This document shows positions 19,120 through 22,100 of a DNA stretch of 64,000 nt, piece by piece. Source of the stretch: Hormiphora californensis. Taxonomy: Eukaryota; Animalia; Ctenophora. Where the stretch lies: positions 8,370,001 through 8,434,000 of the forward strand of contig CM035353.1 in the NCBI GenBank assembly GCA_020137815.1, in the 5' to 3' direction. The notes beneath the pieces are model-generated. The model was not told the DNA's origin. It saw only the letters and a list, made by a program, of their open reading frames with translations, and searched no databases. Numbering within the stretch: position 1 is the stretch's first letter; each line of letters opens with the position of its first letter. A program made the translations under genes and the position numbers.

Positions 19120-22100
19120 ATGTACCTAAAGTCCCTTTTAATCGGTAGGTCACATATTGTACCCATACTATGCATATTGCATAGTCCGAAGACTTTAATC
19201 TTAATGATTTTGGTAGAATTGCTGTCAAATCATTCTTAATTTGGCTTAATCAGTAGAAGATCCATAATGAAAATAGAGATGCTGCCTTGCCCGTCTACCA
19301 TGTGTTTTACCTGCAAGTTCCCTCCCCCAGGATTCATAGTACTGCTGAGTAGTTTATGCCAGGGAGACACAGGTGATCGACTTTACGTTAACTTTGGTGC
19401 TTGTTCCTGTGACCCTAATTGGGTGTGCCCAGATGGCCACCGAACACTCACCTACTCAGGTCTGTAGGTCTGTCGAGAGGTGCTTGTGTTTTGCCTAATA
19501 TTAATGTTTGTCCAACACATGAACTATCAATAAGTTGATGTAATAAATAGGGACAAATTGAGACTCGTTGATTTTATTTCAGGAATAACTCGACGTTTCG
19601 CCGTTCGACGGCATCATCAGGATAATCTCAAATTAATTTGTTTAAAGTAGTGTTGAAAAGTTTGAAAAGTTTGAAATTTGAGATTATCCTGATGATGCCG
19701 TCGAACGGCGAAACGTCGAGTTATTCCTGAAATAAAATCAACGAGTCTCAATTTGTCCCTATTTATTATTACATCAACTTATTGATAATGAGACTCATAT
19801 CTAACGTGGCAACACATGAACTTGTGAACTATCAATGTTGTGTTTGTTGCTGGTTTTTAACTACAGTATTGTTACAGGCCACTCCATTGGTTTTGAGGAC
19901 CCACACGCACTAAGAGGGAAGAGGAAGAGATTGTGTAAGGGAGTTGCTGATGAGTGGAAAACGCTCGTTCATTTTAGGTAGGTATCCCCTGACCAAGTAT
20001 TGCGATGAGAGTTTCTATTTCTTTTTATTTTCTTACTTTATAATACCGCTGTCTAGCTTTGCAGTTCCCAGACCTGATTGTCTGAGACACCGCTAGATAT
20101 AGTCTAACAGTTCCACCTACATAACATCTTTCCACCTTGTTTCAGTTCTCAGAACAAGTTCTGTATTAGTAATATGGAGAATGGGATTTACTACTATGAG
20201 ATTGTGCTGGGTGATTGCAGGTAGGTACATCTTTTAGATACATGATGTTTCACTGTTAGCAGTGTTAGCGCGATACCAGGCCAATCTTCTCGCTCGAGAA
20301 CATTGGTCAGCACGATGCCTGACCAGATATTCACTGACATGAACATGACGACTAAACTATATTCGCTAGGTTCAACACTTACAATGTACTGTCTGTAAAC
20401 GGAGAGACGACACTGACACACTACCAGAACAATAACCAACCAAAGGTACTGACAATAATAGGGACAATAATGACAACTGACAACTGGGTCAATCTGGAAT
20501 TATCTTCCACCTTGATAGACATCAGATAAGACCCACCCCACGCCCCACTCAATACCCATCCTAACCCCTGACAATTCCAGGAGTTCACAGGAAAGATAAC
20601 GGTGAAAGACAACAAACTGTGTTTCTGGGACCCCCGTACCCCTATCGCTAACAAGGGGACAATACTAGAAGTAGTGGATGGGTGTGGCTATCCACAGCCC
20701 ACTAGAGTCCCAATGATAAAACTCCTTCAAGTTACCAAGGAGAAGGAGAACCCTGAGGTTGAGGGGATAACCCGGCCCAGTGTCAGTTGTACAGATGATA
20801 GCTGTGTAAATGGGACATGTAGTGTGACAGGTCTTACTACCACCTGCACCTGTCAGACCGGCTGGTACGGGGACAAGTGCGGTAAGTTTCAACAACACTC
20901 TCCACCTAACTTGGGTCTATCCATCTCCAAACTGTAAAATATCACCCTCGGTGTCGCCAGTGGGTCATCCTTCAGACGTAGCACTCAGAAACAAACCTCC
21001 TCTGCCTTGTTCGGCCCTCACCGCACCTGTAAAGAACAGCTCCCCCAGTCCCCACCCTCTCCTCCCTGTAAAGGTAACAACTCTCCTCCCCTGTAGATGA
21101 GCAGTGTAATGAGAGTCACAGCTGTGGAGATAACGGAACCTGTAAGAGCACCACAGCGTTAGGGAAAGTAGTGAAGTTGTGCTCGTGTAACAAGGGAGCA
21201 TTTGGAACCTACTGCAGTGAGTCTGTCTTCTCTCTCTCTCTCTCTCTCTCTCTCTCTCTCTCCCCCATTCACTTGGTTACGAAGTCACCCATCCGAGTAC
21301 CCATCCGATCTAACTAAACTAACTACTTAATTTGACCACGAAATCCGGGTTTTTTAGGTGAGCCAAAGCCGACCTCCAAAAGAAAATCGATTCATTACAA
21401 GTAGCGTGACGCGTCCATATGTGAGGACCCGGCGCTATCGTTCGGCAAAAACCAATTCTGGGAAAACCCCAGTACCGTAAGACATACACTCTTTGGATTT
21501 CCAGATGATCAAAGAAAATAGTAAATACCTATGACAATAAACAAAACCTAAAAACGGGGCACCGCTGTATTAAACGGTAACCCCAAAAACGGGGCACCAC
21601 GGCAACCTAAAATCGGGGCGCCACTGCACTATTATACGGCAACCCCAAAAACGGGGCACCACTGCATTATACGGCAACCCATAAACGGGGCGCCACTGCA
21701 CTATACGGCAACCCCAAAAACGGGGCACCACTGTCTCACGCGGCAACCCCAAAAACGGGGCACCACTGCATTATACGGCAACCCAAAAACGGGGCGCTAC
21801 TGCACTATACGGCAACCCCAAAAACGGAGCACCACTACATTATACGACAACCCAAAAACGGGGCACCACTGCATTATACGGCAACTCTAAAAACGGGGCA
21901 CCACTGTCTCACGCGGCAACCCCAAAAACGGGGCACCACTGTCTCACGCGGCAACCCCAAATACGGGGCACTACTGCATTATACGGCAACCCAAAAAACG
22001 GGGCACCACTGCATTAAACAGCTACTCTAAAAACGGGGCACCACTGTCTCACGTGGCAACCTCAAAAAAGGGGCACCACTGCATTATACAACAACCCCAA

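Follow-up and report, generated by a model that had tools for sequence, protein, structure and literature searches.

How a copy of a host spliced leader (SL) came to be joined, inside a gene, to a hammerhead-like sequence is the question raised by an insertion of ∼300 bases (∼19520–19836) in a 64,000-nucleotide stretch of Hormiphora californensis DNA, here called the window. The locus was compared with contigs from 5 of 22 listed sequencing runs: X2 and X6 (two individuals of organism A), X8 (organism B), and X7 and X13, which are two of the five runs recorded as RNA. Run X2 may be the window's own source. An RNA contig of run X7 joins position 19456 to position 19875 with the open frame kept, and since it spans a GT..AG intron, the insertion could be placed within an intron of a host gene. 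The features of the locus are as follows:

19460–19877, plus strand: host-gene intron (GT..AG, 418 nt) holding the insertion, from RNA contig 17 of run X7.
19513–19525, plus strand: target sequence that agrees with the element tail at 13 nt, or at 12 nt in the empty allele; this is not the duplication.
19520–19531, plus strand: left copy of the target-site duplication (TSD), 12 bp, from the empty allele in run X2.
19525–19626, minus strand: left arm, with the element body between splice junction and inner end and without the tail; matched by a 69-nt family contig with 0 mismatches (depth 1003.8 in X2).
19592–19626, minus strand: minimal hammerhead of the left arm, with a 2-bp helix I, from its sequence against the description in PMC4209133.
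19627–19667, minus strand: SL, 41 nt, identical to the published leader and not followed by GT.
19668–19676, minus strand: additional 9-nt unit of the repeat internal to the leader, its last 2 nt overlapping the right arm.
19675–19682, plus strand: last 8 nt of the leader, heading the right arm; of the leader type, not the acceptor type.
19683–19787, plus strand: body of the right arm with a second minimal hammerhead (core 19689–19717, intact).
19788–19824, plus strand: 37-nt tail, in the right arm only; family contigs end at 19824/19825.
19825–19836, plus strand: right copy of the TSD, from the empty allele in run X2.

The insertion is a young hairpin whose two head-to-head arms show 100% complementarity in two stretches, of 94 nt and 22 nt, with a 3-nt indel between them. 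The second, inverted copy had been described as starting within the last 8 nt of a leader-like 35-mer, and was confirmed to do so, on the plus strand from 19675. That the hairpin was created by assembly is extremely improbable: no listed contig covers the whole insertion, but an X2 contig (19433–19546, 0 mismatches, depth 37.5) starts in the left flank and continues within the arm, the arms differ by the 3-nt indel and at both ends, and an empty allele defines a clean duplication.

The minus strand at 19667–19627 was identical, at 41 of 41 nt, to the 3′ 41 nt of the 44-nt leader printed for Hormiphora in PMC8527503, where it is reported on 56% of long reads. The 35-mer of the original prediction (19661–19627) is therefore ctenophore SL, as proposed, but was drawn too short. 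Nor is it absent from mRNA 5′-ends and simply an internal part of a repeat: a scan of public metagenome contigs for the leader's 3′ 24-mer returned 121 loci, 112 of them within 25 nt of the start of the contig and most of the 121 standing before coding frames, and the host gene's own mRNA contig in run X7 starts with the leader. The stutter reported at the junction is present, and is explained by one extra 9-nt unit (19676–19668) of a repeat internal to the leader, likely the outcome of slippage at the RNA 5′-end. That 19667–19627 might be a leader-RNA gene was ruled out, since no GT follows the leader and the element comes next; in the control loci L087 and L088, which show the true leader-RNA gene form, the leader is followed by GT. 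These two control loci are tandem leader-RNA genes on one contig, 778 nt apart, each with the leader, GT and a short, structured-looking part of the intron.

If the leader was added by trans-splicing, copies of the element that never received it should have a splice acceptor at the same position. In runs X2 and X6, contigs follow the element to an AG at 19628–19627 and then leave for other sequence, which, read on the element strand, shows a branch-point-like motif, a pyrimidine/AT-rich tract and TAG. This acceptor-bearing form continues for at least 255 further letters in X2 and reaches a contig depth of 1354.6 in X6; a diverged homologous acceptor was found in organism B (X8), at the place corresponding to 19625. 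No splice donor or promoter was seen upstream of the acceptor in this form. The leader-joined form of the same family was recovered in X2 as a 56-nt contig with 0 mismatches at a depth of 291.5, compared with 1003.8 for the body of the element and 37.5–61.3 for single-haplotype contigs; read roughly, as contig depth is not copy number, this would correspond to several loci making up under a third of the family. Organism B yielded a 49-nt leader-joined contig with 2 mismatches (depth 17.1). All junction contigs hold fewer than 31 letters on each side, which is below the bridging bar. No exact junction contig of the insertion's family was present among the listed pieces of X6 (645 pieces lie beyond the listing), and its junction was not seen in the RNA contigs of X7 or X13. 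Because the acceptor stands at the same position in the unspliced form, the sequences support the SL junction being a trans-splice product, and the proposal that the RNA was capped by SL trans-splicing is supported too, the AG of unspliced copies in X2 and X6 (with its homologue in X8) falling exactly at the SL junction.

The junction extends beyond this family. A second hammerhead family, with a different 5-bp stem II, GAAA and a different palindrome, was leader-joined at depths of 352.9 in X2 and 661.5 in X6, and in one X7 RNA contig of depth 2, whose loose end displays this stem II, GAAA and palindrome, while in a third form, from one X2 contig, the core comes directly after the leader. The majority letters of the contigs leaving the leader (25 in X2, 26 in X6) place a GAAA at the spacing predicted for this core-after-leader form, with an agreement of only 0.4 and with no such signal in X8. 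Among the 121 leader-bearing public contigs, all at least 1 kb long so that short RNAs are excluded, none held a hammerhead core within 80 nt of the leader. The recurrence bears on the reading that reverse transcriptase (RT) switched template from unspliced element RNA to leader-bearing RNA at a common AG, with no trans-splicing. Leader RNA is abundant, and in RNA the junction is represented by one contig of depth 2, from another family; against this, the junction falls exactly on a canonical-looking acceptor, always at the exact 3′-end of the leader, and recurs in two species and several families, which makes such a switch very improbable indeed. At loose ends of X6 and X8 contigs (19617 and 19624), two other leader-joined sequences common to organisms A and B were observed, one in a contig of depth 241; they are not hammerhead-like, and are possibly further small leader-headed repeats.

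The core that follows the leader was compared with published descriptions of the minimal hammerheads of Penelope-like elements (PLEs), and it was called on this basis rather than from Rfam. After the SL, the minus strand of the left arm carries a 6-nt spacer, CUGAUGA (19620–19614), one extra U, a 5-bp stem II (19612–19600), GAAA (19599–19596) and the palindromic ACGU (19596–19593). The cleavage C, at 19592, is intact, and a 67-nt AT-rich 3′ part follows it as far as 19525. PLE hammerheads are described as having an extra nucleotide and a palindrome and as occurring in opposite-strand pairs 100–700 bp apart (PMC4209133). The present motif has the CUGANGA plus GAAA core, the extra nucleotide lying after position 9 and before position 10.1, the G10.1–C11.1 pair and the palindromic helix III. 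Helix I is limited to 2 proximal pairs, against the 4–5 bp expected of a PLE minimal hammerhead. The Penelope-type core announced 6 nt after the leader is thus in place and fits the description in PMC4209133. The pattern of leader end plus core occurred twice in the 64-kb window and in none of 100 shuffles. Rfam reported no hammerhead at the gathering score, nor any at E ≤ 10 on 451 nt, the best score being that of Hammerhead_3 on one arm (11.4 bits, E 5.6). Rfam microRNA matches at the insertion were dismissed as reflecting the long hairpin only. The exact hammerhead pattern had 0 matches in the metagenome contigs, and the single leader-plus-core match in viral contigs was rejected as a chance match inside a phage coding region.

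Judged by sequence, the motif is a PLE-type minimal hammerhead with putative cleavage activity. Stem II pairs with probabilities of 0.78–0.97 in the predicted fold, but the predicted monomer sequesters the core by pairing it with the cleavage region; in a dimer, an intermolecular 4-bp helix is possible, predicted to be weak (−3.1 kcal/mol). The DNA copies of both arms run uncut through the cleavage site and, together with the sequestered core, this gives no support to the earlier suggestion that the RNA was processed by its ribozyme. Pairing is predicted between the last 13 nt of the leader and a segment lying 35 nt beyond the cleavage site (13 bp, −8.5 kcal/mol, compatible with the hammerhead fold); it was not significant, being equalled by 8.8% of 5000 shuffles and by 10 of the 121 control contigs, and counts as a lead only. 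A more elaborate idea, drawing on this pairing and on the form with the core directly after the leader, gives the host leader a function within the ribozyme, trans-splicing supplying the 5′ strand that closes helix I and capping switching on the hammerhead or the template for reverse transcription, with the leader-capped mini-RNAs forming a mobile family of their own; this was considered quite unlikely.

The way in which the insertion was made is recorded at its borders. In one X2 contig (depth 61.3), position 19517 is separated from 19825 by 6 letters; it represents an empty allele whose haplotype differs at 7 places to the right; run X6 has no cover at the insertion site and is silent on its allele. 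It follows from the empty allele that the duplication is 12 bp (19520–19531/19825–19836). The 13-bp direct repeat previously taken as the flanking duplication (19513–19525/19810–19822) does exist; its right copy lies in the 37-nt tail and is the element's own sequence, because family contigs run through to 19824/19825, so that the empty allele and the family contigs together replace it with the 12-bp TSD. The last 7 nt of the left TSD copy are also complementary to the element, giving microhomology at the left junction. The target at 19513–19531 thus resembles the tail (12–13 nt) and the inner end (7 nt) side by side, and already does so in the empty allele, at this one locus. The 12–13-nt match between tail and target has a probability of ∼1e-4 for a random 40-nt site, calculated post hoc, and no 11-mer match occurs elsewhere in the window; the likeness may reflect endonuclease recognition of tail-like DNA or RNA–DNA pairing. 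The tail begins with ATG and has an open frame of 12 codons; tails of rotifer PLEs are reported to cover the start of the ORF (PMC3846280), and that this tail is the start of a parent ORF is offered as a lead only. Two further head-to-head junctions of the family, with other truncation points, were found in contigs of X2 and X6. In each of the three DNA runs, the summed depth of contigs over 19780–19827 reached 3–5 times the value for the remainder of the element, and hence more diverged relatives also have the tail. In X2, one contig still matches beyond the duplication, up to 19837.

This layout resembles that of a PLE insertion. An inverted pair, a one-sided 30–40-bp tail and a short duplication are described as PLE signatures (PMC8557442, PMC3846280), with an inverted copy, a 31-bp tail and 8–10-bp duplications among the insertions reported in PMC3846280; the present locus has head-to-head, inverted, 5′-truncated copies, a 37-nt one-sided tail and a 12-bp TSD with an empty allele (one X2 contig). 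We consider it probable that the insertion consists of the leader-joined 5′-end of a hammerhead-bearing repeat in two copies set head-to-head, written into the host intron by a PLE RT from a trans-spliced, forward-strand RNA. The suggestion of Penelope-type copying through to the cap thus agrees with the PLE-like layout and with the leader's 5′-end having been reached, a PLE enzyme being likely. Against a PLE, both junctions are homologous to the target (7 nt and 12–13 nt), whereas the Anolis element is described as priming without homology (PMC11167929). In the window, no RT or GIY-YIG ORF was recognised by eye among frames of at least 120 aa, nor did a Pfam scan find a match to either domain among 28 proteins chosen by eye (27 locus frames out of 119 longest-frame candidates, one second frame among them, plus one window frame). 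PLEs of the Naiad clade are recorded in two other ctenophores in the supplements of PMC8557442, and three short words of the element had no match there. As far as its sequence goes, the locus would work like a PLE insertion, its membership of the family being incomplete.

The course of events may then have been as follows. The parent repeat would be the form seen in the contigs, with a branch-point-like motif, a pyrimidine/AT-rich tract and an AG 6 nt before the hammerhead core. At that AG the spliceosome would join the host leader, leaving the junction now found in DNA, and the upstream part would be discarded. The Anolis PLE enzyme is reported to nick and extend both strands, starting at two internal sites that bound the tail, with uncut RNA as the dominant template (PMC11167929). 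By analogy, the PLE protein would here nick both target strands 12 nt apart, as the 12-bp duplication suggests, and prime at two internal RNA sites ∼37 nt apart, which would account for the one-sided tail. Each cDNA would run through the uncut hammerhead into the leader, one of them reaching the leader's 5′-end with a 9-nt slip, a sequence present at the locus; the two cDNAs would then be joined at the 2-nt overlap, and an identical product would arise by fold-back and a strand switch. Copying would have been confined to the first ∼150 nt of the RNA, up to the cap. The product, without acceptor and upstream DNA, would probably be a dead end and not a replicating unit.

Leader-joined RNA might instead have been copied by the abundant LINE machinery. 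Leader-headed LINEs do exist in ctenophore DNA: L039 has the leader, a first frame and an endonuclease frame (its second, matching PF03372), L028, L042 and L064 look alike by eye, and the window's other leader copy is followed by a LINE-like first frame. The insertion, however, has no poly(A) or simple-repeat 3′-end, and the features it does have, namely two duplicated arms, a 37-nt tail on one side and a pair of internal ends, are those of a PLE. Twin priming by LINEs inverts sequence without duplicating it. Copying by a LINE is therefore very unlikely. The other leader copy (minus strand, 15959–15923) stands at the head of a frame at 15959–14624, also on the minus strand, that is homologous, in two pieces of 40% and 76% identity, to the frame after the leader in L071. 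What appears to be another LINE's 3′-end interrupts this frame at ∼15650–15370, and downstream there is no second frame of 120 aa. Leader-headed LINE-like elements were observed in the public contigs at L028, L039, L042, L064, L071, L081 and L015, several with non-leader DNA upstream, which suggests that full-length ctenophore LINE copies begin with the leader.

Some other repeats and genes of the window were noted. Two related sequences of ∼860 bp (10425–11281 and 60736–61603), ∼85% alike, match in both orientations and are long palindromic or foldback elements. The region 40431–41244 combines a 296-bp perfect direct repeat (40466–40761/40949–41244) with an adjoining 33-bp perfect inverted copy, a young pseudo-LTR-like layout in which the scan found no hammerhead core. 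A tandem array of short degenerate units occupies ∼1.5 kb at 21544–23074, and two tRNA genes lie on the minus strand at 35048–35119 and 36872–36944.

A rival reading is a self-propagating, non-autonomous, leader-capped mini-RNA of the retrozyme kind: inserted copies, or else a master without coding capacity, would be transcribed, capped, processed by a dimeric hammerhead and copied again by a PLE enzyme acting in trans. Several leader-joined copies are present in one individual, the form is also present in a second species, and at least 3 hammerhead forms carry it; moreover, the frame that opens at the ATG within the core ends after 11–12 codons, and animal retrozymes have been argued to be non-autonomous PLE derivatives (bioRxiv 10.64898/2026.07.22.740005). 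Yet both arms are uncut at the cleavage site, the locus has no head-to-tail units, the acceptor-bearing form is found at high depth with long upstream sequence, and the inserted copy has lost the acceptor, while repeated, independent trans-splicing accounts for multiple copies without a second round. Self-propagation is thus unlikely, and the SL-capped, retrozyme-like system of the original prediction was not borne out: there are no tandem units, and the SL form, which is in the minority, derives from a longer repeat that bears the acceptor. Like the non-LTR retrozymes of animals (PMC7229834; bioRxiv 10.64898/2026.07.22.740005), the present sequence is a small, non-coding, PLE-related repeat bearing a hammerhead. 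Retrozymes, however, are described as head-to-tail tandems of canonical type I hammerheads giving cleaved and circular RNAs, and the insertion is head-to-head, minimal and uncut; the 64-kb window holds only two hammerheads, arranged head-to-head, with no canonical type I form, 6-bp helix I or loop contacts.

Copying of a trans-spliced RNA by a PLE remains the preferred reading, and close relatives of its parts have been described. The pseudo-LTRs of endonuclease-bearing PLEs (PMC3846280, PMC8557442, PMC11167929) share with the insertion the inverted, 5′-truncated pair, the 30–40-bp tail on one arm, the short TSD and a minimal hammerhead ∼100–140 nt upstream of the 3′-ends, uncut in the DNA copy. 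The insertion differs in that its 5′-ends are the host SL and not a random truncation or a palindrome of the element, no ORF was seen, and both junctions have homology to the target. Penelope of Drosophila virilis, as described in PMC4209133, has in common with the insertion a helix I of 2 bp, an extra nucleotide preceding stem II, a palindromic helix III and a 3′ splice site on the 5′ side of helix I, where its intron ends; in Hormiphora, by contrast, the acceptor takes a trans-spliced leader, and the spliced form is fixed in DNA. Use of host trans-splicing is documented for transposon transcripts of Hydra, in which ∼30% of transposon long reads carry the leader (PMC12220107), and leaders fixed in DNA by reverse transcription are known from the leader-tagged retrogenes of dinoflagellates (PMC12014239, PMC5585692); no PLE, junction ribozyme or ctenophore figures in the available parts of those accounts. 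In the literature searched, which included PMC2770079 and PMC7986045, no precedent was found for a leader on a PLE or on a hammerhead.

Genomic copies of PLEs are reported to retain introns, and given these retained introns and the head-to-head palindromes, an antisense template with self-priming has been proposed for PLE copying, an unspliced sense template not being excluded (PMC3846280). A leader can be added by the spliceosome only to sense RNA, and so, at the head-to-head junction, it serves as a natural tag of the template. It marks that template as sense, processed, uncut by the hammerhead and copied to its 5′-end, and thereby bears on the question of sense versus antisense templates raised in PMC3846280. 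The parts of this record are known already; what appears to be new is their combination in one record of a PLE template that is sense, trans-spliced and uncut. The share of leader-joined to acceptor-bearing copies can be counted in any ctenophore assembly. Two ctenophores have 718 and 491 genomic leader copies, reported without explanation (PMC8527503), and part of these are likely to be the 5′-ends of retro-copied PLE and LINE RNAs. In Hormiphora, a PLE is likely to have copied its own spliced, forward-strand RNA.
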